38,490 nt of DNA, taken from the NCBI GenBank assembly GCA_008632985.1, contig QPGO01000137.1:186001-224490 (forward strand), read 5' to 3'. How positions within the stretch are numbered: position 1 is the stretch's first letter; each line of letters opens with the position of its first letter. A model generated the notes under the pieces. The model searched no databases. It saw nothing but the letters and a program-made list of their open reading frames with translations, and had not been told where the DNA came from. Shown piece by piece: positions 1 through 38,490 of this stretch. Origin of the DNA: Psammoneis japonica. Its lineage: Eukaryota. Both the position numbers and the translations under genes were made by a program.

Positions 1-1
1 C

Positions 2-1357: not shown

Positions 1358-1363
1358 TCAGCA

Positions 1364-6392: not shown

Positions 6393-7060
6393 ATCAAAAT
6401 TTGACCCGGACATGATCTCTCTTCCAACACATTTTTTGACCACCTTGCTTTGTTTTGTTTGCAGAGCAAAATCAAATGCTTCACAACCTTTGGCATCACT
6501 CACCTCAAAGTGGGCTGTGTCATCAATTGGTCAAGTGAGATGAAATTGCCATGAGCACAGGGCAAGACACTTGTGTCAGTGACCAAAGTCGTTGACATTC
6601 TGGAGCAGCTCCAGCATCTTAAGAAACTCTGGAATCCACAAAGGCCTTTTTGCTTTTGACGGGGAACACCCAGCCCCCATGCCTCTGCTTTCTTTGCATC
6701 CTTTGTCACCTGGTTCACTGACTCATGCTTGTTGGGATTGCCTTGGCCATTGCACCAAGCTGGGGTCTTGGTTGGCACAAAGAAGCTGACAGTTTTTTCT
6801 TGCACTCAAGGTTTGACAACCTGGAGCATGTTGGATGGTCTGTTTCTGGATCACACTCTTCCTTCCCATGAGCCATTCCAGGCAACCACTTTTGGGCAAC
6901 AGCTCCTGGGCTCAGCAGAAGGAGCTCACTCTGGGAAAACTTGTGAAGTCTCGGGAGCATCTTGCCCAGAGAGCAGCTCATCAAATTGGACAAACATGGC
7001 TGACAATCTGATTTTTTTGGCATGGCCCAATTGTTGCTGCCTTCTGAAAATGCAAGCCAT
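6385..7060 (-). pseudogene. Crypton-like tyrosine-recombinase-family gene fragment (N-terminal half, frameshifted)
   Basis: Joined minus-strand frames read MAHGKEECDPETDHPTCSRLSNLECKKK / VSFFVP..WCNGQGNPNKHESVNQVTKDAKKAEAWGLG / WQFHLT*PIDDTAHF..FDFALQTK / WSKNVLEERSCPGQIL. This matches my recollection of stramenopile Crypton-like proteins (KKAISFFMP..GNPT..FQFHxIxRIDD..WSKNVxEER). The catalytic HxxR...Y part is absent. Confidence 0.6.
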
Positions 7061-7537
7061 TCCTGTGGGGAAGGTGAAGAGGGCAAAGGTGGCAGTGCAG
7101 CGGGCTGACGGGAGCTGTCTGATTTTGCAATGACTTTTGCCGAAGTCAAAATGCATGTGGAGCAAGTGATGCTGAATGTTGTCTGCTCATTTTCTTTCAA
7201 TCAGTGTTGAACTTTGAAGTGGCATCACCGTGCTCTTCATCTGCCATGCACAAGAAGCACTTGGTGCTCATGCCAAAGCTTGTGCCCTTGTCTGTGCCTC
7301 AAAACTGATGCTGTGCTCAGTGTGGACATTGTTTGCAGAAATGACACTTGTGGGGCAGGTGATGCAGTGTCATGTCCATTGGGCTCATTGCATCAAAACC
7401 CACAGGCACAGGGTGTGTGCCAGCTCATGTTCCCTTTGTTGTTGATGTCGCTGTTTTTCATTTCTTTTGTGGGCATCTTCATGCGTGCATCAGGTGAGGC
7501 AAATCCTTGCTGTGCTGCAGAAAAAGGGCCTTTTCTT

Positions 7538-8054
7538 TGAGGCTGGATCGATGTTTAGCGGCATTTTTTTAAATGGCTCGTGATTTTCGAATTTCCCTGC
7601 ACTTTGCCCGTGTTGTTTTGCGATGCCTCTGAGCACCCCCAAACACACATGAGTGTGTCCAGCCCCCATCAGGGCTGTTGGACCTTTATGTGAACTGCAC
7701 TTGTTGACCTTCAAACGCCAATTGTCGGCTTTGGTGCGGTTGTCACATTCAATGAAGCACCATTTTTTGCCAAAGTGCGACTGCTCACAGTGGACAAGCC
7801 ACAACGTTCCAGGAAATGCCAACAATTGGCGTTTGACTGGCTGCAGACACATCTGCAGTCATCAAGCCACACATCGTGCATGGTCGCAACCGTCTCATTT
7901 GCATTCCATGTTGTCTTGCAAACAGACAAAGTTCAACCTGTCACTGAATTTTTGTTTGGCAAACGTGCGCATCATCAGTGCGACAAATCCGGGTCATTTT
8001 CAAACATTTGCAAGCTCCAAATAAAATCAACTGCAAACCATCGATCCATCCTCA
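7538..8054. mobile_element. MITE copy 1 (517 bp, terminal inverted repeats)
   Basis: Starts tgaggctggatcgatgttt and ends aaaccatcgatccatcctca. Internal sequence is colinear with 9277-9793. No recognisable coding content. Confidence 0.85.
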
Positions 8055-8192
8055 AATGAAGTTGTGTCCATTTCAACATCACACCTGAAGAAATGTCATT
8101 CGTTCTTCAAACAAGATGATGTCTGATGCGACACGAGAATGTTTCTGTCTTAAAAATGGAGGGAGAGTGTTTTCCATGTGATGTCGAGTTTT

Positions 8193-8410
8193 GTCCCAGC
8201 CACATCAGCCCAAGTGATGAGTGACATTTTTCAAGAAAACTGTCATGTGTGGCATTTTTTTGTTTGTTGGTGTCTTGCACTGTGGTGCTTCGCACTGTTT
8301 TGTTTGACATGAGAAACAATGATGGGACAAATTTTGGGGCATTGCAGCTGACGTGAGAAAAGCATGGGCCACGCTGCAACTTGTGTCACTGCAGTGACAT
8401 TTGCGCTGCA
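8193..8410 (-). repeat. ~210-bp dispersed repeat, copy 2
   Basis: Reverse complement of 6187-6392 with many transition differences. Confidence 0.85.
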
Positions 8411-9276
8411 CCCTCTCAGTCAGCAAAACCACAGCATGCTGCGGCGCTTGGCACAAAATTGCATGCGCACTTCATCATGTTGACAAATGGAAACCACGGC
8501 AAAAGCATGCATGAAGGAAAGAGACAATCTGTTGTCTGCCCTGTTCAACACTGGGGTGCATCTTGAGTGCAAAAGGATTGAACAGGCATGCTTGACAACG
8601 CGCAATGATCTTCTGCCAAAGGAATCTGCTTTGTTTGTCATTCAGAGCCTCACAAAGCATCTCCAGTTGAGGCAATTGCACAACAAGCTGATGGATGGCA
8701 AGATGATTGGACTTTCTGAACTTTGTTTTGCACTCGAAACTTTGTGCATGCCACACGCATCATAGCCAAAAACTGGCAACATGGCGGTGGTGCATGTGCT
8801 GTTGCAATGATGGCAATGACAGCAATGTGTCCAACAGCTTCCAGCTGTTGCCCAAATTGGGGTTTCCAAAGGGGGGCTGCTTTTCAAATGACCTTCAACA
8901 TCGGCATGCTTGCAGCGCTTGTTCTGCAGGAGGGCTCTGCTTTGTGTGACCATTTGCAATGGTTTGGCAAGAACACCTGCATCAAATTTTTTCATTGCAG
9001 AATGCATTTGCAAAACAACAGATTTGCTCTTTTGTCAGGATGCAGCCATTGTGCTGGCATGATGGCTGGCGCCCATTTGCTTTTGTTTTCCAAACCCGGC
9101 GATCTGGTTGGATGTTGTGGGTCACGGTTTTTTTTTGTCATTTTGGCACTCATTTTCCCTGGTCTCATGCAGGCTGTGCAGGTGTTTGCAAAAATCCCAA
9201 CAGGCTTTGCGTTGTGCAAGACAACAGACATGAACAACACATTGATCTGTTTGTGTCTTTGGTGTGTGTGTTGAGC

Positions 9277-10026: not shown

Positions 10027-10112
10027 TTTGTGCCTTTCACACATGAGTTTTGGATGCAAAAGACAAGTGTTTTGTGCCTTTCACACATGAGTTTTGGATG
10101 CAAAAGACAAGT
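10027..10112. repeat. Perfect tandem duplication, period 44 bp
   Basis: tttgtgcctttcacacatgagttttggatgcaaaagacaagt occurs at 10027 and 10071. Confidence 0.95.
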
Positions 10113-11130: not shown

Positions 11131-13722
11131 GAAAGAGTGACAAATGATCACATCAGAAAATCCAGTCTTTTGGTGAAGAAAAGCGATTTCAATCAATGCC
11201 AACAGAAATGTTGTTTGTGCCTGCATTTTGCATTGCCAAATTGTGCCATTTTGAATTGTTTGGAAATGATGTCATTTGTGTTTCTGCACAAATCTTTTGT
11301 GAGCATGACACAGGAAATTGTTCAGCATGTTGCCAGTGCAATTTTGTGTGCTGTTTTTCTTTCACAATTGAACATGATGCAAGTTGCACAATGTCAAATG
11401 AGTTGGATTTGTGTTGTGATTTGCAGATCATTTTCAGCTGCAATCTGTTTTGATCAAAAGCGATTGTTTGCTTCTTGGTTGGTGAATTTTGACATTGACA
11501 ATTTGTCATGACAGCCCATTTCCATCAGTGATTCGTTCTCATTTGGAAATGTTCTCATGATCAAAAGTTTGTTCTGTTTTTGCCTGATCAACCTGACCAG
11601 AATGGTTTTGTGTGACAAAGCGCCAGAGTCGCTTGTTTGACAAGTTGTGAACTCTGAGTTGCAATCCATGCTGGGATTTGATCCTCTGTGTCAATCTTGT
11701 CAGAGCAGAGCATGTTGTTGCTGTGACAACCTTGCCTCTCTGAAAGACAGAGACAAAACATTGTTGAAATCGACAATGAAAATGGGTTGGTCTCAACCAA
11801 AATTGAGTGAGAAAAAAGAAATTGCAAATCACTGTAAATGCAAGGGACATCTTTTGAATCAATGTCCCATGATTCAAAATTTGTTGTTGTTGTCTGGAAG
11901 TTGTGGTTTTGTTGAACATGGCATTCCTTGTTTTGACACTTGCACAGAATGTCAAAAAGGAGTTAACAACGCCAACAACACACCAAAGTTTGCCATCACA
12001 AATTTACAGATTGGCAAAGCACCAGAAGTTTTGGCTTGTTTGTGGATGAAGTGGAGCCATCTTTTGTTTCTCAAGGTGTCATTGATCGTCATGCATTTCA
12101 GTGTTGTGGCGGACAGCACAAGTCTGTAAAGTTGTGGCATCAAATGCATGCCAACAATGCAGAACATGGAATGGCATCATTTGAGAGGTGTGATGAGCAC
12201 TGCATGCCTGAGGATGTAACATGTGCGCTGAGTGGTCCTTTCACAAAAGAACAAAAAGACATTGCCGTTTGCAACATGACCATCAATTGGGGAAAGATTG
12301 TTCGTGCACTAAAATGGTCAACCAAAAACAACCGATTGTGCTGTGGAATGAGGTCACCTGACAAGATTGAAATTCCACAACCTGGGGTTTTAGATCATTC
12401 TGCAACAATGGATGGATTGTCATCTAAGATGGAAGCTGTGTTTGAAGCCACCATCACATTTCCACAGCCAGATGAAACAGATCAAAATCACACAGGACAT
12501 GAAAACAGAGAGAACAGCACATGAAAGAGGTTTTAAATGACAAGAGATTTTTTCACATGATTTCACAATCAACTTCTGCCCCTGTAAAAAGTTTAGATGG
12601 CAACAACTTGCTTGGGTGCTTTCCTTTGCAATTTCCATTTGGCAATGGAGCTGGGTCTGATGAGGCAGATGGGGCTCAGTGTGTGAAACATTTGGCCAAC
12701 TCAAGCAAACCCAGTTTTCAAAAAGCAGAATTTTTGCTGCCACTGTCAGTGCATCAATCTAGATTGCAATCAGCGAGAGGTGCGTTGATTGGAGCTGACT
12801 GCAAAATGAGTGAAGACAGAACCACGACAAATGTCATGAACGACATTGATCTTTCAAAGTGGACACTGCCTTGGGAGAAATTCACAATCAAACTAAATCC
12901 ATGCTTGGTCGGACCAGAGCAAAAACAAAGATGCAGGAAGATTGCTAGATTGCATTTCTGCGATGTCAAAAAAACTTCCATTTTCTGATGATGCTGCCAA
13001 AGAAGAAAGAAAGAAACTTTTTTCTCTTTGCATTGAGCTCAATCTTCCTGCCACATTTTTGAGCATGTGTCCAGATGACACCTCCAATTGGCACATGAAA
13101 GTTCAATTGACAAATTCTTCTAAAGCACCCAGCTGCAAATCTACAGAAGCAACAGATGACCACTTGGCAGATTGTGCAAAAATGCGCGTCAAATGCCCTG
13201 GTTTGTCAACCTTAAATTTTGAAAACATCATTGACATGGTGCCATCGGATGTCATTGGTTGGGACATTAAAAACAATTGCAGCAAACAGGAAGGAGGAAA
13301 TTTTGGCAAAACAGAAGCATGGTTTGCCCCAGTCAAGGAACAACGAAATGACACATTGCACACACATTTTCTCATTTGGATCAAGGGTGGTCGGTTGCTG
13401 CTTTTTTAGCTCAAATTCGGCTGAACTTTTCCTGAATTTCACTGTGCTTCACCATGGCAAAAACAACAAGCCACAAGTCTGTGACGGAGGTGGCCCATCT
13501 GCCAACTCTCATTTGTTTTGTGTTTGTTGTGTGTCAAAGATTGCACATGCATGAAAAGTTGGCAGACAGCAAACTGCGTCATTGAGAAATGTTGATGATT
13601 GTCATCATCGTCGTGCTTCAATCGCGGTGTTGATGGCTCTTGTTTTCGTGTGCGATCGGGTGTGACTGCGAACAATTCTTGTTTTTAAAAACAAACACTG
13701 CAAAAAACCTTGTTCAAATGCA

Positions 13723-14870
13723 ATGGCAATTTCAGGACAAACCCGGGGATGACCCCCCCCCCAAACTTCAAGGCCCTGACCTGCACACAATGCTTGGTTG
13801 ACACACACCTGACTGCAAGGTGCCTCTCCGGGTCCCTCCCCTTGAGGCAAAACACTCAACTGGCCAGACCATGAGAGTGCAGCCGGTCCATCAAGAAGCT
13901 GCAGGTGGAGGAGGCCCTTGAAAATGGGGCAACTCCAACCGCAGCCATTTACGTCAATGGCGCATGCTGCCAAAAGTTCCAAAAGAAGCGCCTCCCCAAT
14001 CCAAAGTTGTCTGGAATCTGTGAGGAGACAAACAGACTCTGCTGCGGAAAGGTGGAGGATGTCTCGTCTTGTGACCATGGTCCGCCCAAATGTGTGTTGG
14101 CCAAAGACAGCAAGGAGGGCCACATGGAAGCCAAGAACTGCCTCCTCCGCCAGCTCGTCAATGACCCAGACATGGCCAAGAAATTGAGTTCATTCAACAA
14201 CCTCAAAGCTCAAAGGCAAAAGGAGCAGCTCAACAAAATCCTCAACAGCCATTTGATGGGTCAATGCTGCATCACTGCCAGCAAGTTCCTCCAGGATTGG
14301 GGCTTGAAAGCCTTTGCAGAGTTGGGTGTTGCTGCCGTGGCTGTGTGTCAACAGCTCGGCATTGAAGATGTCAACACCGATGACACAACCGACTTGAACA
14401 AAGTCACGCTGATGAATGCCGATCTGCAAGAAGAACTGGCTCAGCTCACATGCGAAGTCATTTGACATGAAGCCAAGTTCAAAGAAACCAACGCCAGTGT
14501 GGAGGCCATGAGGGAAGAGTTGGCAATCATTGGCTGTCAGCATCAAGACTTTATCCAAGCCCAGCAAGCTGCCAACGCAGCCATCAGCAAGTTGAGCGAC
14601 CGGGTTGACAATGTCAAGGAGGCACTCAATCAAGTCAACAGCATCGTTGCTCATGGTTTGGAGCAGCAGAAGTTCAATGACATTCCATCAGGAAAGAGTT
14701 TTGTTGCCTTGCTGTCTTTGGATGATGCTGGCGCCACCGCCCTCAACGTCACCACGGATGTGGCCAAGAGCACCAGCTCTTGCGATCATGATGAAAGTCT
14801 TGTTGGTGAGGCTGTGTCCACTGATCTGGATGCCACGAAGGTGAGACAGTTTCGTGAATGCAATGGCTGA
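13723..14870 (+). pseudogene. Unknown coiled-coil protein remnant within an insertion that splits the Helitron Rep domain
   Basis: ORFs 13905-14465 and 14499-14870 share a frame, separated by one TGA. Heptad-like segment (LQEELAQL..VEAMREELAII..ISKLSDRVDNVKEALNQV). Visibly more GC-rich than the flanking Helitron DNA. Confidence 0.55.
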
Positions 14871-17800
14871 CAATCTTCATTCTGCTGACAAAAAAAGCAT
14901 GATGAAGCCATTGATTCAACGACTTCTTTTGCAAATCAAATTCCATCATCTGAGTGTTTCAACAGCAAACCTTTTCCCAATGACAGACAAAAAACAATTG
15001 CAGATGTGATCGAGCACCACCACAAAAAGAATGGTTGTTGCAGCCCACACTTTGAACAATGTTCTCCACAAAAATTGTGAAATGTGAGGTGCAAATTTTG
15101 TCCAAAAAATCACCTTCACAAATCAATCACAACATGCAAAACTTGTGAACAAGACTGTGCCACAGATGATCTTGTGAAAGAGTGCTGTGAAGACCTTTCT
15201 AAAAAATTCACATTGAACTGCATTGTGAGAGATCTGATTTGCATCAGCTAAAACATTTGATGTCAAACTGCAGCTGTGAAGAAATGCATCATCAAATGGC
15301 AAATTTTGTTTCTTCAGTGACACAAAATCTTCATCAACATGCTTTCACTTGTTTCAAAAAAGGAGAAGAAGGCAGATGTTTTCTTCCAAAAGAACAATGT
15401 AAGAGGACAGCATGTTGTGACTGTGAAGATGAAAAGATTCCTTGGTTTTTAGTTGGGATGGCAAAAAAATGAATGGAGTGTCATGCACGATGGAAACAGA
15501 ACGACATCCGATGGATGCACATGTCAATCAACACAATCCATTGATCTCAACACTGTTCAATTGCAGCGCCAATGCTCAATGTGGTGTGGGTGGGTCGCAC
15601 ATTGTGCGTTGCACCTGTTGTGCAACCAAATCAAACAAAAAGAAGAAAAACAGGCCACGGTGGATGCACGTCAATGGTCACTTGGATTGTTAAAAAAAGA
15701 AATGAGAGATCAAAACAACAGTGTTGGAAACCAGGCTCTGTTGTGGCTTCTGCTGAAAACTGCACTGTTGGAGGACCCTTGGCAAAATTTCCAATCAAGC
15801 ACAATTCCAGGTTTTCATGTTTCCAGTCATTCGCACCTGTGCCTTTTGGAGACTTTTGTGAAGAAAGAAGCGCTCTCACCAATTTGCACATGCTTCAAAA
15901 AAACAAAGCTTTTCTCAGCAGCAGCAGAGATGCTTGTTTTCATCAACCATCTGAGCCAAATTCTCTGAGTCCCTGTGAATTTTGCGCCAAATGCAAAGTT
16001 GTGAACAAACCTTGAAAAAAGGAAAACTAAATGGATCTGCTGTCTTTTCGTTCTGATGCACCACCTTCTTGTAAAAATCTTTGGGTTTCTCTAAGAGATG
16101 TGGAGGTTGTTCCATTGGCGTGCCATGGCTTGATGAAACATGATGGCAAAAACTCTGGTGGTGACATGTTTGTAGATGAAAACATCAACGACGGCAATCG
16201 TGCATCCATCGAAGACCATTGTCAAAAAATCATGTTTCTCTTCTGGAATTTTTGTCCAGAAGACACACACGAAATCGACAGTTCGCATCATCTGAAATTG
16301 AAGTCTCCAATTGAAAATGATGAGCTTGACAAAGGATGTGATGTTGAATTGCAAAATGTGCAAAATTGCAAAAACAGTTTGAATGCTTGCAGAATGCCTG
16401 AACAACTTGACAGAAAAACGATTGAACCGATTGACACCAAAGATGATTGAAGCAAGAAACCCAAAGCAACGCCAAAGGAAATGACAGATCACATTGATGA
16501 AAAATTGTCAAACATTGCAATTGACACGAACAACACATTGTTGTCGGTCGAAAACAACACAAGTGATTCGAAGGCAGACAATGCAAACAATGACGTGATG
16601 AGACAAAGAGCATCTGGCAGAGCTGGTGTGGGGAATGTAACTCCTCCATCTGTTGTTGAAGATTCAGATCCATTTTCAGAGTGCTTGGTTGCAAACAAAC
16701 AAAATGAAGAAGAGCAACCATCCAAACAACAAAAAACCAAAGACACAAGAGCATTTCCAGCATTGACCATGGACCGATTGTTGACAGCAAAAGCCAAGAG
16801 CATTCGCAGAAATGTTCAACACACAAATGACAAAGAAATGTTTGTGAAAAAGGTGGAAGCAACTGGATCACCTGCTTCAACAACCGCGTGGGCAAATGAT
16901 GCTTTTTGTGACAAGAAAATGAAACAAGCAGGCAAAAAGCAAAAAGGAGCTTTCCAATGTGCAGTTGCCAAATTTGTGCTTCAACATGTTCCAGCTCAAT
17001 GTGCAGAAGTGCATCATGCATCAAAAGCAAGAAGCACGCCAGTGAAATGGAAATCTGAATTGTGCGAGCTGAGAGGTTTGCACCCTGACAGAAAAAATTG
17101 AAGATGAGAATGTTTTTAACTGGCTCTGGTGGTTCTGGGAAAAGCCATGTTGTGAACAACATCATCGCACATGCTTCGAGATTTTGTGATTTAATCAAGC
17201 AAAAATTTGACAAGAGAACCACAGTTGCAACAGCTTTGGCTGGGGTTGCAGCAACCAGCATGCTTGGAGAACAACACACAGTGGTTTGTGAATTGATCCA
17301 AGAACTGGAAAATCAAGTGCAAAGTTAGAAAGTTCAGATGCCTCCAACACAACAAAAGAATGGAGAGAAGTTAAAATGTCAACAATCGATGAGATGTCAT
17401 TTGCAAATGTCAAAATGATTCAATCCATCAACAGTGCTTTACATGTGCTAAAACAAGACTTGAGTCGTGCTTGTGGTGGATTGCCAATGATGTCAAGTGG
17501 AGATTTTTTTCAGTTGGATCCTGTTGGCAATGACAACAACTTGATTTGTGTGGACAACACTTTAGATTTGTGGTTTGCAGAGATCAATTGCTTCATTGAG
17601 CTTGACGGGGGGCACAGATTTGACAACAAAATTTGTCAGAGTCTTCTAGAAAGGTTGCAATGTGGTGAAATGACAGACACAGACACAAAACTCACAAACT
17701 CTAGAATGGTTGGAAATGAAAACATTGAGTTTGCAAACATGCCCAACAACTTGCAAATTGCATGTCACACGAACAAAGACAGGAACACAAACAACAGCAA

Positions 17801-18514
17801 TGTCTTTTTAAGTCATTTAAAAAATGTGCGCTCACAGGAAAAGGAAAACACCACACCAAAACACACGCTGGTTGTAAAATCAAGTGGTGATCACAAATGG
17901 TCGCACAATTCATCAACTCTTGCACAATCAGCCCCAAAAGATTTCTTTGACAAAGTTGCTGAATGTGGCTGCAAAACAGTTTCAGATGATCATTTTGTTG
18001 ACCCGCTGTTAAAGCTTTGCAAAGGCACTCCAATCATGTCAGTTAAAAATGAAGATGTGCCAAATGGCGCTGCAAATGGAGCATTGTGCAAGTTGCACAA
18101 AATGGCAATTTGTCCAGGAGTGGAGGAACACATGACTCCCATGCTCCTGGATGGATTTTGGGTCAACTCCACAGAGGCCCATCACATGGAAAAACTGGTT
18201 TTAAAGCACGGGCCCAATTTCTTGGAAGAACATGAGATTTGTGGGGGGAGTCATGACTGCAAAGCACATTTTCCCATGAACTTTCTTCCTGAACATGCAA
18301 AGGAAACAAGACATGTGGCTCGAATGTCATTTCATCAATTTTGTGGCATTGTCAACAACTGCACAACCACTCACAAACTTCAAGGACAAACAAGAGACAA
18401 CCTCTGTGTCACAGCTTGGAATGAATCGAAAAGTTGGGCTTGTGTTGCTCTTTTGAGAGTCAAGACCTTAAATGGTCTTTTTGTCAAAAAACCCATTGAC
18501 AGAACCTTTGACAT

Positions 18515-23654: not shown

Positions 23655-24059
23655 CAAAGGAGGTTGCAGAGCTGGAGTGCCTGAAACTCAACTTGCACCC
23701 TGGACTGGTGTCTGCTGGACAACAACAAAAAAAACAGACCCAAATTTAAAGTGCTGTCACTCCTTTTCCAGCTGTGCTGGCACTGGCTGACCCCCACACC
23801 CCCAGCACACAGTCAAGCACAGCAGGAGCTTGCACAGGATTGGCCAGAGTGGGCATCACCAGAAGGTGACATCCCACCAAGACAATGAAGAGGAATGACT
23901 CACGCAAGGGATTTGTTGCATGCTTGTTGATGACAGCCACAGAAGGCACACCACAACTGCAACTGCAACAGACAATTGCGCTTGGATGGGCTTGTAAAAT
24001 GATGGTCCACAAAAGGAGCTTTGAAGGCAAGACGAGCAGGTCATTGGAGAAAACATTCA

Positions 24060-24530
24060 TGGCATGCAGAAACAATGCTGGGTCTTGTGCAGAAAAGCCA
24101 ATGGGAGCAGCAAACAAAAGACAATCAAATGGCACCACCGGATGACTCGCGCTCTTGCTGAAAAGGGCCACAACAGAAGCAGCACATTTGCCACAAGCAC
24201 TTGATTGCATGGCAGAGAAAAGAAGTGGGGTTGAAGACTGACTGGCAAGGATGAAAGCAGTCTGGAGAAGTGACATGCAGACATTCAGTGGCAACACACA
24301 GAAACAATGCCAGATCTTGCACAGAAAAATCAATGGGAGTGCAAATGGATGACAATCAAATGACTCTGAAGGATGGCTGGTGCTCTTGCTGAAAAGGTCT
24401 GCACAACAGAAGTGGCACTTGCACCACAAAGAGTGAAGGACTTGATTGCATGGTGAGGAAAAGAAGTGGCATTGAAGACCAATTGGCGGGGACAAAAGCA
24501 GGCCGGGGAAGCGACATGCAGATCGTCAGC
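24060..24530. repeat. Diverged tandem duplication, ~232-245 bp unit
   Basis: cagaaacaatgc..caatgggag..gacaatcaaatg..gctcttgctgaaaagg..acttgattgcatgg..aaaagaagtgg..ttgaagac..gacatgcaga starts at 24067 and 24299. Confidence 0.85.
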
Positions 24531-27500
24531 AGCATTGCGGATCTGCTTGGAATTTGCGCTAGAACCTGTGTAGAAAATTTTCTGAGACAACAGAAAATTA
24601 CAAGAAACAATGACCAGCATGCTGGCCAACAGACCGTGACACTCCTTGTTTTCCACTGATGAACTTTGCTCATCATGCTGCAATGAGGATGTGCCTCTGG
24701 CAAACATGGACAGAATGGGCTTGTTGGAGCCAAATCAAAACCATCTGAGAATGGTGACATCAACACAAAAGCATGTGCAGAAACACATGCAGGGGGTTGC
24801 CAGTGGGTGCTTGCACAGATGCAAAAGGCAGTCAAGGCACAAATTTGGTGCTGGACAGAATTGACATGGAAACCAAGATGTGGCACAATCATGTGATGTT
24901 AAAAGTGATGTTGGCTGACTTTGCACAGAGTGCACCAAGCTGTCAATTGGTGCCAAAGAAGAGTGCTGCTTTCAAGCACTGTGTGAGCTGAACAAACCAG
25001 AATGAAAAGCCTTCAACACAGCCTGCTTGCACCTGTGGGGAGAGTGGAAAAAGGACTTAAAAGGTTTCTTGAAGGTGTCAAGTTGAGCAGCCCTGCACAT
25101 GGCTCAAGTGTGCAAATTGCAAACAGACATGGAAGGATGGGCGCTTTGCTGCTCAAGGCTCCCGCAGACTCTGCAGCCAAAAATGGCAGAAGATGGCAAG
25201 CCTGAAAAAGCTGCTGACATTCAACATCCTGGTTGTCAACTTTGTTGCTTCTTGATTGTTTGTAGAAGAATTTGCGCAAATGCTGGACAATGCCATGGAG
25301 AATGGAATCTTCTGAGAAACCAACAGCATTGAAGAAGCAGTCAAAAAAGCCATGGCCAAAGACAACAAAAAATGAGAGACAGTCACTTCATCTGCAAATG
25401 ATGCTTCTCAGAAGGATGCAAACAAGGAGGTGACATGGTCCCTTGGCTGGGCAATGGCAAATGTGCACAATCATTTTGAAGCAGACTCTTAGAGTGGAAA
25501 GAAAGCAGCAGCAATGAGGACAGTTGACCATCCATTTAAGAAATGGTGCACCCCAAGATGCCACACCAGAAAAGAGGATTTTGCACATCATTGTCTTTCA
25601 AGGTTTTTGCACTCATGCTGCATTTGCTTGCTGCAGTTTGTGGTTGTTTCAACAAAGCAACAGTGAAGAAGCTGGGGAAGGACAGCATGGCAAGTGCAGT
25701 GCATGTAAAACTTGCAGATGAGGCTGTGGAATTGCTGTGGAATCATTTTGCAGAGTCGATTGCTGATCTGGACATGATGCACAATGCTGCAAGCAACAGC
25801 AAAGCCTTGCAGCAACTGTTTTTTGCGTTGTCCAAAAGACATTTGCAGCTTGAGCACCACAAGTGGTTGACTCATTTTGGGAGGAAAACACAAGCAGACA
25901 CATGCCAAAAGCAGCAGATGCTGCATCCTGGAAGAGGTCAAGGTGGCAGCACAAGGGGAAACAAAAATGAGAATGTCAGCAAAGAAGATGATGCGATGCA
26001 CAGCTCAATCTCACCTTGCTGTTCATTTCCACACATTGAACAGCAGCTGCTCAAACCATGCTGCAGCTTGCTCATGAAAACAACAAAGTGCTGCACACAG
26101 GTGCCAATGCATGATGACCACAAATGCATGACAGCCCACTTTGCATCAAATGGGCACCTTGACACTTCCCACAGCAGTTGCACAAGCAGTGGACAACAGA
26201 GTCTGTGAGAACATTTCTTTGATGTGCACATCTGTCCAAGCCACAAACTGCAAAATGCAGAGAAGACAGGCTCACAAGAAATCTGTGCCATGCTTTGCTC
26301 TGCAGAAATGGTGGATGCAACCAAGCCAACTCATGCTCAAGCAACCGACAGACGTTTTTTGTGGTGACAACATGTGAAACAGACAATGGAGTTTGTCAGA
26401 GCATTTTTTGCCATGTGTGTTTCCAAGCCAGCACAAACTACAGGAAGTGGAAGAAATGTGCTCACAAGACACCATGTGTGCCATTTTACCACCCAAACAA
26501 CAGGTGCAACAACATCAGCTCAAATTTGATCAACCAGCAGCTGCGACACTTTGGGACCCCTTTTGTGCATTGTCACTTGATGCAGGTGCCATTGCTGAAA
26601 TGTCTGGCAGCAAACACAGAGAAAAAATGTGAACTTGTGAGCATGAACAGCAAACTCTCTTCATTGCCCATGGCGCTGCTGACCTTTGCTTGCCATCATG
26701 AATGAAGCAGATGTTGTGGATTGGAAAGAAAAGGAAGTGCCATGTGCTGAGGTGCTGGTGCTCTGCTTTGGAAACAGAGCTGTCTGAAGTGTTGTCCAGT
26801 CATGCATCCTGTCACATTGTGCAACGTTTTTGCAATTGCAGTCTTGTCAATTGTGTGCTGAGTGTGCAAGCATGCACATGTGCAGATGAAAACAATTGAT
26901 TTGTGCACACCTCTGGGGCTGGTTTGCTGTGAGGGGTCAGCACCAAGACTCCGTGGCATCAGCAATTTTGTGCCAGAGGGCCAAATGCCAACTTTCAGCA
27001 GAAAAATGATGCTTGCTGTGAACAAGATGGCAGCAGCAAGAGGCACCACAAAAATCAAACAAGCTGCTGAAATGAAGCATGCCTTGTGTCAAACAGACAT
27101 CACTGTGTCAACTGGTGCAGCATCACCACAGTTGCCTCACTGTCTTTTACATTTTTGCAGAAGAGGTCCTGGACTCTCAGAGTCATTGTGCAGAAATTGC
27201 ACTGGAGTGAGTGCCAGAAACAGCTGCTCTCCATCTGTCTGCCCACCCATGTTCAAGTGTCAACTTCTTGGGAAATCAATTGAAATGTTCTCTGATCAAA
27301 ACTTGTCAACCACCTTGTTGTCATCTTTGACGTTGTCGATGCAAACATTGCTGCATCTCTCTGTTTTTTGTGCAACTTCTGCATGCCACAGATTTGTGCA
27401 CAATTTGTGCCACACACTCTGTGATTGCTGTTGCCCTTCATGCCAATGCATTGGATTTTTGTTCAGTTTGTCATCAACGCAAGTTGCACCGTCATCATGG

Positions 27501-29427
27501 CCCCTGCAACCCACTTCAAAACACAGGCAGCAAAGGATTGGTTGGCCTGGATGCAGACAATGATTGAAACCCATTGCTCTCCCCAACCATCTGCTTGAGA
27601 TCCTCTGCCAGATCCACCTCTCCCACCAGCTCAGTCACCAGTCCTTGCTGCACTCAGTGCTGCATGCACCACATTTGCGCCACCTGAGGCTGATGGCGCA
27701 ACTCTCCAGGCAGATGTGCCCCCCCACTCCTCCAGACTTGGTCGCTCCTTCATGGGACAATGTTGTGCAGAATCCCAGCCCTGGCACAGTGGCAGATCTT
27801 GCAGCTGCTTTGCTGCCCACCCCTGCCATGGACCAACATGCTGCTCAGTCAATGAGTGCTGCATCTCTTCTGGATGAATGAGGAGCTGAACTTGCTGCAT
27901 GTGATGCTGCTGCCATGGTGAGGCCCAATGCCATGCTTCCACGTGCAATCACAAAACCCCCATTTTTTGCCAAAATGCATTTCCAACCAACTGATGACAC
28001 ACTGATGAGAAGTTCCCAACATCTTGTGGGGTCACAAGTGGAGAGTTGCGTTAGTTGCAGAGCTGCCACCAAAATTCGTCCCTTGCATTTTCCCACACAA
28101 TGGAGGTGCTCCATGAAAAACTGCTTCTGTTTTCAAATGCCCAATGCCAGGAACAATGCACACCTGTTGCATCCTCACAAGACACTGGTTTGAAGCATGT
28201 GAGACCAACAATGCTTGCATCTTGGGTGCTTTTGTTGCAAAAATTTGAGTTGAGTGGGTCACACAGGATTCAAGACTCATGACTCAGGGTGTGTCTGGGC
28301 TTTGCACTCAGCAAAATGGAGAAAGAGAGGAACAACAAACTGCTGGTGACACTTGGGGCCATGAAATTTGGCTGGGTGACTCAAAAGTCTTTTGACATCA
28401 TTTGTTGATTTGGGAAATTTGGTTTCTGAAACTTTCAGTCTAGAGAGGAAATGGATGGAACAGTGTGGGACCTGTCAAAGATTTGCGATGAAGCATTTGG
28501 CAGACGTGCTGTTGCGTGTCGACTGTGGAGTTGGCCAGTTGTGGGGGTGTGCATTTTCTGCATTTTCCATGAGCAATGAAGCAGCGCTGTAGATTGGTTC
28601 CTGTCCCCACCTGCACGAAGTCCCCCATGTCCGCGCGCCGGGTGCACCCCACCCAACCACCCCACAAGCCGCTCACAACTGTCTGATGGAATCTCTCTCC
28701 TGCATTTTTTGGCGTTTTCTCTCTTTTTGAATTTCCATGCTTGTCCCTGCAAATGAGGATTTTTCTTTTACCCACATTTGAACTGCATTCAGAATCTTTG
28801 TTGCCGGGCACCACTCTAAGACTCATCTCTCCGCACACTTTTGTCTCAAACCCAAGGACACAAGCATTGGCCAAGGACAGCTCTGGCTCATCATTGGTGA
28901 GTTTGTGTGTGTCCCTCCCTGGTCATGAGCCAAAGCAATGGTTCCTCATCATTCTTCATTGCTCTGATCAGGCGGCAACGTTGCTTGGCATTGCAGCCAT
29001 TGTTTCTGATTCTGTTCAGGAGGCTTTGTCAGCTGTTGCTTCTCCATTGCTTGGCATTCATCCTTGTCCTCATTTGCTGCTGCTGCTCAGCAAGCTCTTG
29101 GTCAAGAGCAATGATTTGCATCAGTTGCCAAAGAGCTCATCTCTTGACGAACTTCTCATGGTTGGCCTGATGCCTCACCTGGACAAGAGCCAAACCAGCT
29201 CCATCATCAAGTTCTGCTCTCAGAATCATCCTCCCAACAACAAAGGCTGAGCTCTTCTAAAACATGATGTGCAAAATGCCGCAGCCACCAAGTGTTGCTC
29301 ATGGCATTTTCGAGTGTGCCATTGTCACAAAGTTTGCAAGCCAAAGCACTCCAAATCCAAGCCACTGAAGAACAAAAAAGAGCTCAGGAATGAACTCTTT
29401 CCAAACTGTCAAACATCGGGTGATTTG

Positions 29428-31818: not shown

Positions 31819-32369
31819 TGAACAAATGCTGATGTGCTGTCACGCACATAGGCAGTTTATGTGCCATTGGCGATTGGTCCACTGTCGCTTAATCAGTGGC
31901 CCCGGTGGCGCAACATCTCACAATTCTAGAACCTGTTGATGCTGTTCAACACTCTGTCTTGTCTTGCACCCAATTCTCAGCCATCATGGCAGCATTTGTT
32001 CACTTTGTCAGAGCCAATGCGCCACGATGTTCATCGCCTGGAACGGGCATCGCGAACGGCACGACGGTGTCGTTGCGATCGATCGATTTTTGCGGCAAGC
32101 GCCATGTTGGTCCCATGGTTGCTCGCGTGATCGCTGAGTCCTTCATGTGTGTCAACATTCATGGACATGAACGACATGCTCTTGGAGACCAGAGCTGTGA
32201 TCCGTTGGACATGACATTGGAGCATGGAATGTTTGATCATGTGGATGGAATGTGTTGGCTAAGACATGTGAACATTCGTGATTTAGATGACACAATGATT
32301 CATGTGTTGAGGTCTGTCATTTGATCACACAGATTTCATTAAAATCAAAACAGGTCATCTAATTGTTCA
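31819..32369 (+). repeat. 5' LTR (~551 bp)
   Basis: Start fixed by alignment to the 3' LTR. End inferred from inverted termini TGAACAA...TTGTTCA. Confidence 0.8.
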
Positions 32370-32550
32370 GACACCGCACATGTGGGTGCATGTCTGTTGG
32401 ATGTCATTGCTCAGGGGTGACACCGCCTGCTTGCGGGTTCGCTAAGTAGAAACCGCCAAATCGGCACGAGAACCACACATTTTTCTCACTTTCCTCCACT
32501 CACACAAGTGGATGCTCACGCGTTGAAACGCAAACAACTGCTGACACACC

Positions 32551-33972
32551 ATGGCTGCTGCCGCAGCCTTTGCCACCTGTCTCACGCATTGTGGATGCAA
32601 TGCACAGATGCGCACCCACATGGCCCGTCAAGGCTTCACTGCAGTCGAGGACCTGGAACAGGTCCCTTTGACTGAAATTGCCGACATGACAAAGGGCATT
32701 GTGAAGAGTGTGGATGCCGCCGCTGACCCTCAAGTCCGCTTTCCCCACCTGGCAAATCGCAAGCTCAAGGCACTGTGTGCATGGATTGACTGCCGCAGAG
32801 CTCGGAATCAAGAGCCGACCGCTGCTCTCTTCACTGGCGACGTCATTGGGACATGGACGGCACGTCTGACGGAACTGGAGCAATTCAAGTCCGCCGACTT
32901 GGATGACGAATCGGCTGCCAAAACCACCGTGGAACTCAAGAACCCACATGACTGGCCCACCTTCCAGGAGCTGTTGGAGACTCAACTGCGTCATCACTGC
33001 AGTGCCGTCACCGGAGTGCCCCTTGTCCACCCAGTTGGGGAACATGAAGGTGTCACCGCCAAGATGTTGGCTGCCACCTGCACTGCCATTGATGAGGACC
33101 TCACTGCCACTGCCCATCTTGCAGGAGCTCAGCACACGCAGGATGGGCAACGCCTGCATGACCTCTTGAAGAAGTCAGTGACAGGGGGGCCTGGATGGGC
33201 TTTTGTCAAACCTTCCAACCGCAGCCGCGATGGTCGCACTGCCTTCTTTGCACTTGAGAGGCAGGCGGAAGGATTGGCTGCCGCCACCACCCAAAAGAAC
33301 CGTGCTCATGCACAGATTGCCACCATGAAGTGCACCGGACGGGGTCGATTTACATTTGACCAGCACACTCAGCGTCATCAAAAGGCTCACAACGACTTGT
33401 CTGAGCTCAACGAACCTGCAGCCGAGACCAAGAAGGTCTCTGACTTTCTGAAGGGCATCTCCGACCCTGGGTTGGAAACTGGCAAGAGTGCAGTGGATGG
33501 AGACCCAACCAAGCTAGCGGACTTTGAGGCATGCCAGCAGCACATGAAAACTCTGGTCGAGAATGCCAAGAACCGCAATGCTGACACTCGCGGGGTTGCA
33601 TCCATCCAACACTGCAACAATGGGCGCACTGACCCTGGTGGGAAGCACCAACCTAAAAAGGACAAGCCCAGAATCCGGGCAGGCCATTGTCCTGTCGAAG
33701 AGTGGAGTGCTCTTGACGGCCCCGAACGAGAGCAAGTCCAAAAGCTCCGTGATGCCAAGAAGGCCGAGAAGAAACGCAAAGCTGCTGCTGCGTCCTCGGA
33801 GGCTGAGTCGGTCGATGCCAAAACTCGTGCCGCAAAGAAAGTGGCTGTCGCCGAGCCCACTTCTCAACCCACTGACACACTGAAAGACTCCAAAGAGCCT
33901 GGTGAACCTGCTGCCAATGCAGGCACCCAGCTCGGATGCAGCGTGCATGAGAAACCTCAGAAGGAGGAATGA
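32551..33972 (+). CDS. gag: Copia Gag-like protein; ORF open but heavily substituted (473 aa, no Tyr)
   Basis: ATG-initiated ORF after the LTR. Motifs TGVPLVH, GPGWAFVK..RDGRTAFFAL, RFTFDQH..HQKAH, KVSDFLKGI, GHCPVEEWSAL resemble CoDi Gag. Confidence 0.85.
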   Translation: MAAAAAFATCLTHCGCNAQMRTHMARQGFTAVEDLEQVPLTEIADMTKGIVKSVDAAADPQVRFPHLANRKLKALCAWIDCRRARNQEPTAALFTGDVIGTWTARLTELEQFKSADLDDESAAKTTVELKNPHDWPTFQELLETQLRHHCSAVTGVPLVHPVGEHEGVTAKMLAATCTAIDEDLTATAHLAGAQHTQDGQRLHDLLKKSVTGGPGWAFVKPSNRSRDGRTAFFALERQAEGLAAATTQKNRAHAQIATMKCTGRGRFTFDQHTQRHQKAHNDLSELNEPAAETKKVSDFLKGISDPGLETGKSAVDGDPTKLADFEACQQHMKTLVENAKNRNADTRGVASIQHCNNGRTDPGGKHQPKKDKPRIRAGHCPVEEWSALDGPEREQVQKLRDAKKAEKKRKAAAASSEAESVDAKTRAAKKVAVAEPTSQPTDTLKDSKEPGEPAANAGTQLGCSVHEKPQKEE

Positions 33973-36900
33973 ACAGTTGCGCCAGCACCAAAAGGCACAG
34001 AACCGATTGTCGCTGCACCTGCTGGCACTGTTTGTTTGTCTGGGCGATTCTCAAATGACACACATGTCTCTTTGTCATCTGCTGGAAATTCAGATAACGA
34101 GGCCACCACTGATTTGGACTCGCACGCTGACACGTGTGCTGTTGGGTCCAATTTTGTGATGTGCTCTGACATCGACAGAACTGTCGTGGTTCACCCCTGC
34201 TCCAAAGAGTGTGCACCAATGGAAAACATTCCTGTTTGCATGGCTGCTGCCGTGTGGGTTGATCCAACTGATGGACAACCACACCTGCTGTCAGTCCACG
34301 AGGCCATGTTTTTCGGGGACAAGATGAAGAACACCCTCCTGTGCCCCAACCAACTGTGAGCGAATGGGCTGATTGTCCACGACACCCCTCGCCAGTTTGA
34401 TCCAAGTGGCGCACACTCTGTTTCTTTCCCTGACTCGAACATCAGGATGCCATCGCGAATGCGAGGTGTTGCTTCAGTCTTTGATTCACACAAGCCAACA
34501 AAGGAGGATCTGGAGAACCTCCCCCGGCTGGAACTCACATCACCCCTGAGATGGGAGCCTTCCACTGATGCCCTGGTGCAAAAGGAGGAAGCTTGTGTGT
34601 GTGCCAGTGTGCGCCAAGGATCAGCGAAGTCGGACGGACGGTCGACGATGATGAACGCGACCAGGTGTGTTGCTTCCATTCATTCACACCAAATGTCCTG
34701 TCACGATGACAATGTCATCATGGACACCAATGACGATGATTCATTGTGTCACCGCCTGGTTGCTCAGGCAAATGTCTCCCACAACGACACTGAGGGAGAC
34801 GGGCTCCACGACCGGTGTGACTTGGATGTCCACCCGGATTGTGCCAAGCAGAAACGGGTGCATGCACTTTCGACCTCGAATCGTGCATCGACTGTCACGC
34901 CCGAGATGCTCTCTAAAAGGTGGAACATTGGCCTGACGGCCACTGAGAACACCCTTAGAGTGACGACCCAGGCAGGGGTCCGCAATGTCTGCACACCATC
35001 CGAACGGAAAGTCTGGAAGAAAGCCCCTTGGCTTAAGTTCCCTGCGATCAAGGGACGGTTCTACTCCAATCAGATGTTTTCGAAGGTTAAATCAACACAT
35101 GGCGAGATGGGAGGAAGAGCATTTGCCAACGGAAGAGGGTGTGATGGGTTCTGTCCTTGGAAGAGGAAACAGGACCACCCAGACGCCGTCATGTCATTCA
35201 TGCATGCATGACGTTGGTGCACCGCAGGTCCTTGTGTCGGATGGCGCGCCGGAAATGGCAGAAGGCCAGACCAAGGAGATCTGCAAGGAATGCAGGGGTG
35301 CACCAGGAGGTGTCCACCCCTCACAGCCCCTGGCAGAACCCAGCCGAGGCATCCATTCGTGAGTTGAAGAAAAGGGTCCGTGTGACTCTACGCCGGACTG
35401 GCGCTCACAGGCGACTGTGGTCCTGCAGCGCCAAATGGATGTGTCGCATGATTGCGACCAGCATGTCAGACATGGGAGGACGAGTCCCAGAAGAGGAGGT
35501 GACGGGTTCGACACCCGACATCTCTTCCCTCTCTCTCTTTGATTGGTGTCAACCTGTTCATCACTGCATGCCTGTGGCGGAGTTTCCACAAGAAAAGAAG
35601 TGCATTGGTCGTTGGCTCGGAGCAGCTGACAACTGCACTGACGATGTGGCATTCATCATTTTGCCCGAATCAGGCAAACCCATCATTCGGAAGGATGCAT
35701 GGGCCACACCGGAGGATGACCTTAAAACTCCAGCAATCCAGACGGATCTTGCATCGGTCGATCAAGCTTTGATCGAACGGCTTAGCATCCCGGAAAAGGA
35801 TGCCAGTGCTGACTTCCCTGAACTCCCTGACGACTTCATGGATGAATGGGACGACGCCGTTGAACCCGTGGAACCTGACGCTTCCAAACCGGAGGCTGAT
35901 GAGTGCACCCCGGAAGGGACAGATGAATGTCTCACAGCTCAAGTCATGTCACCACATGGAGGCGAGCTGACTCATGCTAGGGTCATTGCACACAAGCGAG
36001 ACAGCGACGGGGTCCCCATTGGTGCCAGGAATGATGACCCTGTCCTAGACTCGAGAACATGCGACGTGGAATTCCCTGACAAGATCCACTGATTCCTGTG
36101 CTGCTAACGCAACTGCAGAGAACCCATTCGCTCAGATCAACTCTGAAGGGAATGCCCACCAGATCATGAAGGAGATGGTCGATCACCGACGTGATGCCCG
36201 TGCTGTGACGGCCGATGACGGGCATGTGACGACCAAGACTGGCAGGCGTGCTCCCAGGAGGACGACAGTGGGCTGGGACCTGCAAGTCGAATGGAAGGAT
36301 GGGACTGCATCCTGGGTTCCTCTCAAGGATTTGAAGGAATCCAACCCAGTCGAGGTTGCTGAGCACGCTGCAGCGAACAAAGCAGCTAGTGAGCCAGCCT
36401 TTAACTGGTGGGTCCGAGACGTCTTGCGTCGCAGGTCAAGGATCCTGAAGAAAGTCAAGTCGCGTCACTGGAAACGCACGCACAAGTTCGGAATTGAACT
36501 CCCAAAATCTGTTGAGGAAGCTGTGGAGACAGATGACAGAACGGGGACCGATTTCTGGTTCAAAGCCATCGAGAAGGAAATGCGCAACATCATGCCTGCA
36601 TTCGAATTCCGCGATGACGATGCCGCACCGGTCGGGTGCAAACACATTGACTGTCACATGATCTTTGACATCAAGAGCACTCTCCAACGCAAAGCGAGGT
36701 TCGTGGCCGGAGGCCATCAAACCGATCCACCTGAGGAATCGACATGTTCCAGCGTGGTTTCGCGTGATGGTGTTAGGATGGCATTCACTGTGGCAGCTCT
36801 GAATGACCTGGAGGTCCTGAGTGCTGACGTTCAGAATGCCCACTTGAGTGCACACACTAAGGAGAAGTGTTGCACTGCTGCTGGCCTGGAATTTGGGAAG

Positions 36901-38183
36901 CAGAACGAAGGAAGGCCGGTGGTCATTGTCCGTGCCTTGCATGGTCTCAAATCTTCAGGTGCAAGATTTAGGGAGCACATGGCAGCTGCTCTGCGGGACG
37001 CTGGGTTTGAGTCTTGCAAGGCTGACCCGGATGTCTGGATGCGGGCTGCGGTTAAGCCGGATGGCTTCAAGTGCTGGGAATGTGCACTTGTCTACGTGGA
37101 CGACTTGTTGTGCATCTCCCATGAACCTCAGAAGGTCATGGATTGTATGAGCTCCAGGTGCACGCTCAAGGACAGAAGCGTCTGTGAGCCGGAAGAGCAC
37201 TTGGGCGCCCAGATTAGAAAGTGCCAGCTGTCTGACTCGGACGGCAAGACACGCTGGGCCATGTCCTCTGACCTTCATGTCAAAAGGGCATCAGCTGACG
37301 TTGAATTAGAGCTTAAGAAAACTGACAGACGTCTTCCAATGAAGGCGTCAACGCCCTTGAGCTCGGGACACAGGCCTGAACTGGACGGTTCACCTGAGTT
37401 GAACGCCAAAACGGCTAACTGCCATCAAGGCCTTGTTGGTGTGCTGCGGTGGGTGGTTGAACTGGGGTGAGTGGACATTTTTGTCGCTGTCTTGCTCATG
37501 TCCTCCTACTCAGCGGCACCACGAGTTGGACACCTGGACGAGGTGCTCCATGTCTTTGCATGCTTGAAAGCTCATTCTAAGTCTGCGCCAGTGTTCGACG
37601 ACACTGAGCCTGTCTTTGACGAGAGTTGCTTTGCCAAGTGTGATTGGGAAGAATGTTGCCCTGGCGCGGCTGAACCAATGCCGCCGAACATGCCGGAGGC
37701 ACGCGGGAATGGCGTGACTGCTGCTTGCTTTGTTGCTTTGTCGATGCTGATCACGCCGGATGCCGTGTGACATGCAGGTCCCACACTGGGATCCTGATCT
37801 TTGTCCAACGAGTGCCCATCTTGTGTCACTCTAAGCGGCAGAATGCCGCAGAGTCCTCCACTTTTGGGTCGGAGTTCGTGGCTGTGAAGACTGCAGTGGA
37901 GCAAATTGAAGCCTTGCGTTGCAAGCTTCGGATGCTCGGAATCCCCATGGATGGGGCCACGACGTTTCTGCGACAATGAGCTGTCTTCAAGAACTCAACT
38001 AAACCAGAGTCTACTTTGAAGAAGAAGCATAATGCAATTGCCTGTCACAGGACTCGTGAGGCACAAGCCGCTGGAATGGCGCGCATTGCTTGAGAAGACA
38101 GACGCACGAATCTAGCGGACGTGCCAACTGAGTTGTTGCCTGGACCGAAGCTCTGGGAAATCACAAGTCACATCCCATGGTGA
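33973..38183 (+). pseudogene. pol: Copia pol (protease, integrase, RT, RNase H) with stops and frameshifts
   Basis: PR DLDSHADTCAVG; IN LSKRWNIG, VGAPQVLVSDGA, PHSPWQNPAEASIRELK; RT CHMIFDIK..RKARFVAGGH, ADVQNAHL, RALHGLKSSG, DPDVWMR, LVYVDDLL; RH FVDADHAG..RSHTG, ESSTFGSEFVA, FCDN, LKKKHN, NLAD. In-frame TGAs at 34357 and 37468; frameshifts near 35205, 35295, 36085, 37730 and 37980. Confidence 0.95.
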
Positions 38184-38314
38184 GTCCCAAAAGGGGACAA
38201 ACCGAACGGGTTTGCCATGCAGGTGCGGCTTTTCCCACCCCCAAAATTTGATTGCTGCCCTGGACATCAGGTTGCATTTGTCTGTCGATCTGGCCCGAGC
38301 GGAGCTGGTGTCAG

Positions 38315-38325
38315 TTTGAGGGGAC
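38315..38325 (+). other. Polypurine tract
   Basis: tttgaggggac lies immediately before the 3' LTR start TG at 38326. Confidence 0.75.
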
Positions 38326-38490
38326 TGAACAAATGCTGACATGCTGTCATGAACACAGGCAGTTTATGTGCTGTTGGCGATTGGTCCACTGTCGCTTGAT
38401 TGGTGGCCCCGGCAGCGTGACATCTCACAATTCTAGAACCTGTTGATGCTGTTCAACACTCTGTCTTGTCTTGCACCCAATTCTCAGCTG
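38326..38490 (+). repeat. 3' LTR (partial)
   Basis: 165 bp aligns without gaps to 31819-31983 with 16 mismatches. Confidence 0.95.

Follow-up and report, generated by a model that had tools for sequence, protein, structure and literature searches.

A 38,490-nucleotide stretch of Psammoneis japonica DNA (contig QPGO01000137.1 of assembly GCA_008632985.1, positions 186,001 to 224,490; hereafter the window) ends in a dead Ty1/copia-type long terminal repeat (LTR) retrotransposon (31819-38490) and is nearly devoid of the dinucleotide TpA over its whole length. Our analysis makes it quite probable that the copia element was inserted first and that its TpA sites were then converted to TpG or CpA by a host process acting on either DNA strand. 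A system of this kind has already been described, very recently and in one species, Bigelowiella natans (Mettrop et al., bioRxiv 10.64898/2026.01.13.699255), and the window is a further and more extreme instance of it. The TpA-depleted block covers positions 1-38490, with TA at 0.07, TG at 1.76, CA at 1.68 and CG at 0.41 of expectation. It holds only 183 TA dinucleotides (0.5% of all dinucleotides), and TA never exceeds 0.28 of expectation in any 500-bp interval (median 0.057). Coordinates below are those of the window, and all stranded features lie on the plus strand.

The two LTRs differ mainly by TG/CA swaps

The 5′ LTR (31819-32002), recognized as a direct repeat and by alignment, starts with TG and ends with CA. 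Its length is set at 184 bp because a perfect 10-bp terminal inverted repeat (31819-31828/31993-32002), unique within the window, ends at 32002. The first 165 of the expected 184 bp of the 3′ LTR lie at 38326-38490, and its last 19 bp fall beyond the window end. An ungapped comparison of 31819-31983 with 38326-38490 revealed differences at 16 of 165 positions, gathered in ten variable places (31833-31983). Six of these are double swaps, in which one LTR reads TG and its partner CA (starting at 31833, 31865, 31894, 31906, 31911, and 31982). At two more places, the 5′ LTR has TA where the 3′ LTR has CA (31849) or TG (31890-31891), and the last two are a CG/TG site (31843) and a C/A transversion (31845). 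TA-type positions make up 14 of the 16 differences, leaving only 2 other differences in 165 positions. The original prediction, drawn from the letters of this DNA, had listed the same 16 differences, and the list matched exactly, including all ten variable places.

Counted by dinucleotide, the LTR pair contains six CA/TG sites, two TA/TA sites, two sites with TA on one side, four CG/CG sites, one CG/TG site, 18 TG/TG sites, and 13 CA/CA sites. To set these counts against chance, 16 random substitutions were placed on the 5′ LTR with transitions and transversions at 2:1, and 100,000 such runs gave no swap in 85,759 cases, one in 13,465, two in 757, three in 19, and four or more in none. The six swaps observed between the LTRs far exceed chance. 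A third LTR copy, visible at a contig joint (31844/38357), has TGTGT where the 5′ LTR has CACAT and, by our reading of the contig row, retains TA at 31849-31850.

The lost dinucleotide is TA

Polarity was established on the pol region of the element, using alignment columns with at least 80% agreement among at least 15 of 26 full-length relatives. Only 2 of 26 conserved tyrosine columns were retained, while 15 now encode cysteine (TGY) and 9 histidine (CAY); in comparison, the other conserved pol residues were retained in 518 of 619 columns. When the reverse transcriptase part was compared with 19 other relatives, tyrosine was retained at 1 of 14 positions, the others having become His (7), Cys (5), or Phe (1). 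Because conserved tyrosine codons turned into cysteine or histidine codons while other residues mostly stayed, the lost dinucleotide is TA and its products are TG and CA.

Sequencing data pointed the same way. Two public runs of one sample, X1 and X2, were used, with contigs built from k-mers and compared with the window by word depth. The loose end of an X2 contig lying over the leader of the element (~32122-32151) shows five differences from the window, and at four of them the contig carries TA in place of the TG or CA of the window. Within the LTR pair, CG is intact in both copies at four sites and decayed in one copy at a single site, as against six swaps. Opposite CpG decays at six LTR sites are not credible, because four CG are intact in both LTRs and one has decayed on one side only. 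The proposal that the variable LTR sites were ancestrally TA is thus backed by the tyrosine losses in pol, the TA in the X2 leader sequence, and the intact CG in the LTRs. CpG-type changes do occur in pol, where a conserved arginine codon became a stop (TGA) twice and a cysteine codon twice.

Conversion acts on DNA and on both strands

A degraded Helitron (Rep plus PIF1-type helicase; 11602-18512) in the left part of the window provided a control for the level at which the changes arose. It was recognized by a Helitron_like_N match (E = 2.3e-9), the PIF1 match being below its curated cut-off, and is colinear in eight pieces with a protein relative (P0241; 1853 amino acids, 60% identical). A gap in this colinearity (~13382-14889) may be an insertion. 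None of the 57 tyrosines of P0241 is retained in the Helitron, and the change is of the TA type in 45 of them (31 Cys and 14 His; 12 other). Helitrons are DNA transposons and move without an RNA stage or a reverse transcriptase.

Outside the LTRs, six other repeat pairs of the window together contain 30 TG/CA swaps. Three of the pairs are chromosomal tandem duplications (D3, D4-6-9, and D5-7), accounting for 15 swaps (3, 10, and 2, respectively). Because the Helitron and the tandem repeats, which have no RNA stage, are converted too, the process acts on DNA. In pol, the change is T to C on the sense strand in 9 of the 24 altered tyrosine codons, and editing of the sense RNA cannot explain this pattern because such edits give only A to G on that strand. 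Over the whole window, the two products are nearly balanced (4100 TG and 4144 CA). Conversion therefore acts on DNA and on both strands. The view that either strand was targeted is borne out by the Cys and His products in pol and the Helitron and by the TG and CA totals, and the exclusion of RNA editing and reverse transcriptase error, likewise part of the original prediction, by the complete loss of Helitron tyrosines and the 15 tandem-repeat swaps.

Probable conversion after insertion and inflated LTR divergence

At insertion, the two LTRs of an element are alike as a result of reverse transcription. Because the LTRs of the copia copy carry swaps, most of its TA sites would still have been TA at insertion and were resolved independently later, the two LTRs being taken to come from one insertion. 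The copia element has 325 CG and 40 TA in 6323 bp, and the left flank 180 CG and 47 TA in 13,306 bp, which fits an element younger than its surroundings. Less-converted copies in X2 also fit conversion after insertion. The claim that conversion followed integration is thus supported by the LTR swaps, with the caveat that the target-site duplication lies out of view and that the LTR pair is not proof by itself.

The consequence for dating is large. Kimura two-parameter divergence between the LTRs is 0.107 over all sites and 0.013 once the 14 TA-type positions are removed, an inflation of about eightfold, which bears out the warning that LTR dating would overestimate the age of this element.

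Copy number and reality of the converted sequence

In X1 contigs, word depth reaches 4000-8900 for the copia family compared with ~50-100 for the flanks, corresponding to a family of about 100 copies, to an order of magnitude. As many as 5653 contigs align to the stretch at 90-100% likeness. At a word depth of ~50, X1 contigs show the low-copy flanks in their converted state with few differences (e.g., 4 in 733 nucleotides and 2 in 518 nucleotides), and the same runs show ordinary TA elsewhere, with contig loose ends carrying up to four TA in 30 letters. A strand-specific error is unlikely, because the k-mers would then be divided between states instead of showing a single one at full depth. 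Conversion is as complete in stretches at low-copy depth as in the high-copy element, which argues that present-day repeats are not required for conversion.

The other runs resemble the window far less, X2 containing next to none of its words and X3 none. Only two short X2 contigs (depth ~12) touch the stretch, matching 28385-28456 and 32035-32117 at ~90% and continuing into sequence rich in TA, which gives them the appearance of less-converted relatives of the window repeats.

Alternative explanations

Several observations weigh against insertion followed by conversion, or limit how far it can be taken. The six swap sites themselves are not polarized by an unconverted LTR: a degenerate LTR pattern gave no match in the metagenome, viral, and genome contig collections searched. 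By our own arithmetic, a model with a single rate of TA conversion fits the LTR counts only roughly (2 sites unconverted, 2 one-sided, and ~12 converted in both). X1 may be the source of the assembly itself and is then not independent proof of the sequence. The process may be directed at particular targets instead of affecting the whole genome outside genes, an idea that draws on a few TA-bearing loose ends and on an analogy with B. natans. Finally, the window stops 19 bp before the end of the 3′ LTR, leaving the target-site duplication out of view, and in a family of ~100 copies an element recombined from two insertions is possible, in which case the LTR pair cannot time the conversion. In this last scenario, the LTRs would stem from two insertions of the high-copy family and the swaps would be silent on timing, while a TpA process at the DNA level would stay. 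The depth of the family relative to the flanks and the thousands of contigs at 90-100% likeness, which imply many differently converted copies, favor it, as does the hidden target-site duplication. It is nevertheless unlikely, given that the element is complete and in order (LTR, gag-like frame, colinear pol, purine run, LTR); the scarcity of LTR differences not of the TA type (2 in 165) adds a weak argument, since it would also fit copies of one recent burst.

The remaining explanations have much smaller chances still. Decay of methylated CpG, with an ancestral CG decaying to TG in one LTR but to CA in its partner, would agree with the low CG content of the window (down to 0.14 of expectation in its older parts), with the CG/TG site of the LTRs, and with the arginine losses in pol, but it is close to refuted: six opposite double decays are unexpected beside four intact CG and one one-sided decay, TA persists in one LTR at two variable sites, and the coding loss is one of TA (2 of 26 and 0 of 57 tyrosines retained), which CpG decay could not push to 0.07 of expectation. 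A change before integration, whether by ADAR-like RNA editing, reverse transcriptase error, or editing of cDNA, has precedents in the preference of ADAR-type enzymes for U before the edited A (noted in bioRxiv 10.64898/2026.01.13.699255) and in the cytosine editing of retroelement cDNA by APOBEC enzymes described in PMC4866542. This route is largely refuted by the Helitron, which, like the tandem repeats, was converted without an RNA or reverse transcriptase stage; moreover, 9 of 24 changed pol tyrosines are sense-strand T to C, the low-copy flanks are as depleted as the element, and the LTRs, alike after reverse transcription, now differ. It is just as improbable that TG and CA are base-calling or polishing artefacts at a modified thymine in TpA (e.g., 5-hydroxymethyluracil) that is read as C on the strand that happens to dominate. 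Such an artefact would be expected to give TG or CA at random at each site, and hence swaps between identical repeats, and the sequencing platform is not on record. However, k-mer contigs at a depth of ~50 show a single converted state per site with 99% likeness in the low-copy flanks, ordinary TA is read elsewhere in the same runs, and the frame changes, TGA stops, and graded CpG decay are those of a truly old pseudogene. The same signature was also called from Illumina data in B. natans (bioRxiv 10.64898/2026.01.13.699255, in the portion drawn on here).

Sequence context of surviving TA and bias of the products

The 183 surviving TA of the window fall unevenly into flanking contexts, with 111 in YTAR, 35 in RTAR, 33 in YTAY, and 4 in RTAY (Y, pyrimidine; R, purine); ATAT is absent. 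Counting both strands (366 strand-sites, by our own summation), the base following a surviving TA is A in 189 cases, G in 101, C in 55, and T in 21. By this pattern, TA seems to be converted most fully, and targeted preferentially, when a pyrimidine follows it.

Among converted tyrosines of both elements, Cys outnumbers His (46 versus 23; binomial p = 0.008), an excess that may stem from a flanking-base effect or from a coding-strand asymmetry. Among Helitron tyrosines, codons after a pyrimidine gave 20 Cys and 3 His, and codons after a purine gave 11 of each. The corresponding copia counts were 6 Cys and 5 His after a pyrimidine and 9 Cys and 4 His after a purine. A strict rule by which the flanking bases set the pair that changes was therefore rejected, copia being without effect and the pooled Fisher test giving p = 0.13, and an influence of the flanking bases on the Cys/His outcome is suggestive only. 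The natural target of the tRNA deaminases ADAT/TadA is the U33-A34 step followed by a pyrimidine in tRNA-Arg. The context in which these enzymes act, the anticodon loop, is similar to that of the conversion, which needs T on the 5′ side and apparently favors a pyrimidine on the 3′ side.

Structure and relatives of the copia element

Between the 5′ LTR and the gag-like frame lies a leader (32003-32544), read directly from the sequence. The bases after 32002 bear only a partial likeness to the usual primer-binding site for the initiator tRNA, and a primer-binding site is not established. The following open frame of 475 codons (32545-33972) is probably gag, as judged by its position, and matched no Pfam family at E = 0.01. 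The broken pol (34057-38180) is colinear with a relative of 1384 amino acids (P0121). A tblastn search with P0121 placed its pieces in frames 1/3/1/3, so that the frame changes three times, and TGA stops interrupt it in frame at four positions (34357, 37468, 37977, and 38091). A copia-type reverse transcriptase domain, RVT_2, is found at 36628-37164 (Pfam PF07727, E = 2.2e-10, 41 bits versus a cut-off of 31.6), and its YVDD motif contains one of the two retained conserved tyrosine codons (37093). The low RVT_2 score was considered as a sign of damage and dropped: it is a trait of the lineage, because an intact relative scores similarly low (49 bits). In P0121, DDE_3 and rve_3 matches (residues 377-460), both weak and below the Pfam cut-offs, precede RVT_2 (residues 867-1064), as they would if an integrase were encoded ahead of the reverse transcriptase in the Ty1/copia order. 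A purine run (GAGGGGA, 38318-38324), separated from the 3′ LTR by one base (C at 38325), resembles a polypurine tract and may function as one.

The best protein relatives of pol were 64% identical in the set of near-length proteins and 68% in the longer set (P0121, reverse transcriptase part). The nearest relatives are metagenome proteins and diatom proteins (Fragilaria crotonensis and Fistulifera solaris), and full-length ones measure ~1350-1430 amino acids and lie on 5-7 kb contigs. No close unconverted family member was present among the relatives in the protein collection, and none of these was fit to polarize single sites other than tyrosines. The closest known elements are the diatom "CoDi"-type Ty1/copia elements, with which it shares the RVT_2 reverse transcriptase; unlike them, the studied copy is dead, and it is at most 68% identical to any relative found.

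Composition and other repeats of the window

The recognizable content of the window is mobile DNA, the flanks consisting of the degraded Helitron and of tandem and dispersed repeats, and no Rfam families or tRNAs were found. Pfam rows below cut-offs in the flanks (fucosyltransferase, DUF5613, and a pertussis-toxin subunit family) were treated as chance matches. With TAA and TAG almost gone, TGA is the sole codon that ends frames, and 98 stop-to-stop frames of at least 120 codons are present over the six frames; most of these are surely not genes. CG is depleted unevenly, at 0.81 of expectation in 1-3000, 0.14-0.38 in 3001-30000, and 0.55-0.71 in copia, which may reflect either parallel methylation decay or an attack on C by the same enzyme.

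Among the repeats, a tandem array with a unit of ~232 bp (23827-25160; repeats 24067-24534) shows 10 TG/CA swaps between two units, and its word depth of 1170-1400 in X1 indicates a high-copy family or satellite. A dispersed direct repeat (7565-7864/9303-9602, 82% identity) carries 11 swaps, and an inverted repeat (6189-6308/8285-8404, 88% identity) carries 3. The two units of a 44-bp tandem duplication (10027-10112) are 100% identical and contain no TA; it probably arose after conversion had finished or had nothing left to convert.

Discussion

The history that best accounts for these observations would begin with the insertion of a Ty1/copia-type retrotransposon into a transposon-rich stretch of chromosome. 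A host process would then have changed the A:T pair of TpA to G:C on either strand, so that about nine in ten TA of the copia copy became TG or CA. Each site would undergo a single event, since the product is no longer TA. With the changed base pair decided nearly by coin toss, initially identical LTRs would end as TG versus CA at six sites, and TA would survive in one LTR at two. Combined with CpG decay, three changes of frame, and four TGA stops, the loss of 24 of 26 conserved pol tyrosine codons would have left a dead copy. Chemically, adenine at 5′-TA-3′ would be deaminated to hypoxanthine and fixed as G at the next replication. For the enzyme, the likeliest candidate is a DNA-acting adenine deaminase of the ADAT/TadA type, by analogy with the proposal made for B. 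natans. Oxidation of the TpA thymine to a base that mispairs with G has an identical footprint, and sequence cannot separate the two.

Of the 302 nuclear point mutations that arose de novo in mutation-accumulation lines of B. natans, 231 mapped to two viral regions integrated in the genome; 210 of 211 and 20 of 20 of these changed A to G or T to C, in every case within TpA (Mettrop et al., bioRxiv 10.64898/2026.01.13.699255; this and what follows reflect the portion of the preprint drawn on here). Its authors also reported 124 clusters of TpA-poor, CpA- and TpG-rich 1-kb windows in the genome, as well as 324 low-TpA coding sequences enriched in reverse transcriptase and DDE domains, and proposed an ADAT2-like adenosine deaminase acting on DNA. 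Both cases share the A:T to G:C direction, the TpA context, and the involvement of both strands, the affected DNA being integrated and of foreign origin in B. natans and mobile in the window. They differ in extent: the giant-virus insert of B. natans is partially depleted (Rho TpA of 0.45, TpA still 3.3% of dinucleotides), whereas depletion in the window approaches saturation (0.07; 0.5%) and extends for at least 38.5 kb. A term search of the preprint main text found no use of LTR, retrotransposon, or copia, nor were LTR pairs used, and no flanking-base preference is given in that text (bioRxiv 10.64898/2026.01.13.699255). In the literature searched, from which subscription journals were mostly outside scope, no other description of TpA to TpG/CpA conversion was found.

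Other known systems overlap in part. Fungal repeat-induced point mutation (RIP), as outlined in PMC7296669, likewise involves context-dependent transitions at the DNA level, inactivation of transposons after integration, independent divergence of copies, and inflated LTR divergence. Its direction is opposite, as its C to T changes fall mainly on CpA and generate TpA, whereas the window loses TpA; it also needs duplicated sequence, whereas low-copy stretches of the window are converted too and the B. natans target is single-copy. RIP was therefore rejected for the window, where TpA is near absent, CpA and TpG are in excess, and polarity is set by the tyrosine codons. APOBEC enzymes, in the portion of PMC4866542 drawn on here, also leave a deaminase-type footprint in LTR elements that is read as host defense, but they act on cytosine in single-stranded cDNA before integration, with strand-biased G to A changes and early edits present in both LTRs. 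In the window, by contrast, A:T pairs are changed, both strands are affected, and the LTRs differ. A-to-I editing by ADAR acts on repeat-derived double-stranded RNA and is heritable only if the RNA is reverse transcribed, and then on one strand. It resembles the window in changing A to G and in preferring U or T before the edited A (the latter partly from bioRxiv 10.64898/2026.01.13.699255), but cannot explain the converted Helitron, the tandem repeats, or the LTR differences.

As a counterpart of fungal RIP in the A:T to G:C direction, this type of system has so far been represented, as far as the sources drawn on here extend, by one preprint, one species, and two partly converted viral inserts. 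Beyond B. natans, the window shows the end state at saturation, adds a retrotransposon and a Helitron to the targets, and contributes an argument from an LTR pair and a flanking-base bias. In this end state, TpA is nearly gone over tens of kilobases, and RNA- and DNA-class transposons are equally affected. The LTR pair stands beside the laboratory evidence as a natural-history argument for action after integration. There are practical consequences as well: tyrosine codons, TAA, and TAG are nearly erased, so that six-frame lists of open reading frames fill with long false frames; homology searches become predictably less sensitive through the replacement of Tyr by Cys or His; LTR-divergence dating is inflated about eightfold in this element; and the rapid, patterned divergence of family copies disrupts assemblies and repeat clustering. 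The bias in the bases flanking surviving TA provides a testable fingerprint of the enzyme. We further put forward, tentatively and as a proposal with less than even prospects, that these changes reflect a chromatin-wide defense, not induced by repeats, that would saturate TpA conversion over whole transposon islands, affecting LTR retrotransposons, Helitrons, and tandem repeats without distinction, by means of a T-A-pyrimidine-preferring descendant of ADAT/TadA (or thymine oxidation), and whose occurrence in a host other than B. natans would make it widespread in protists.

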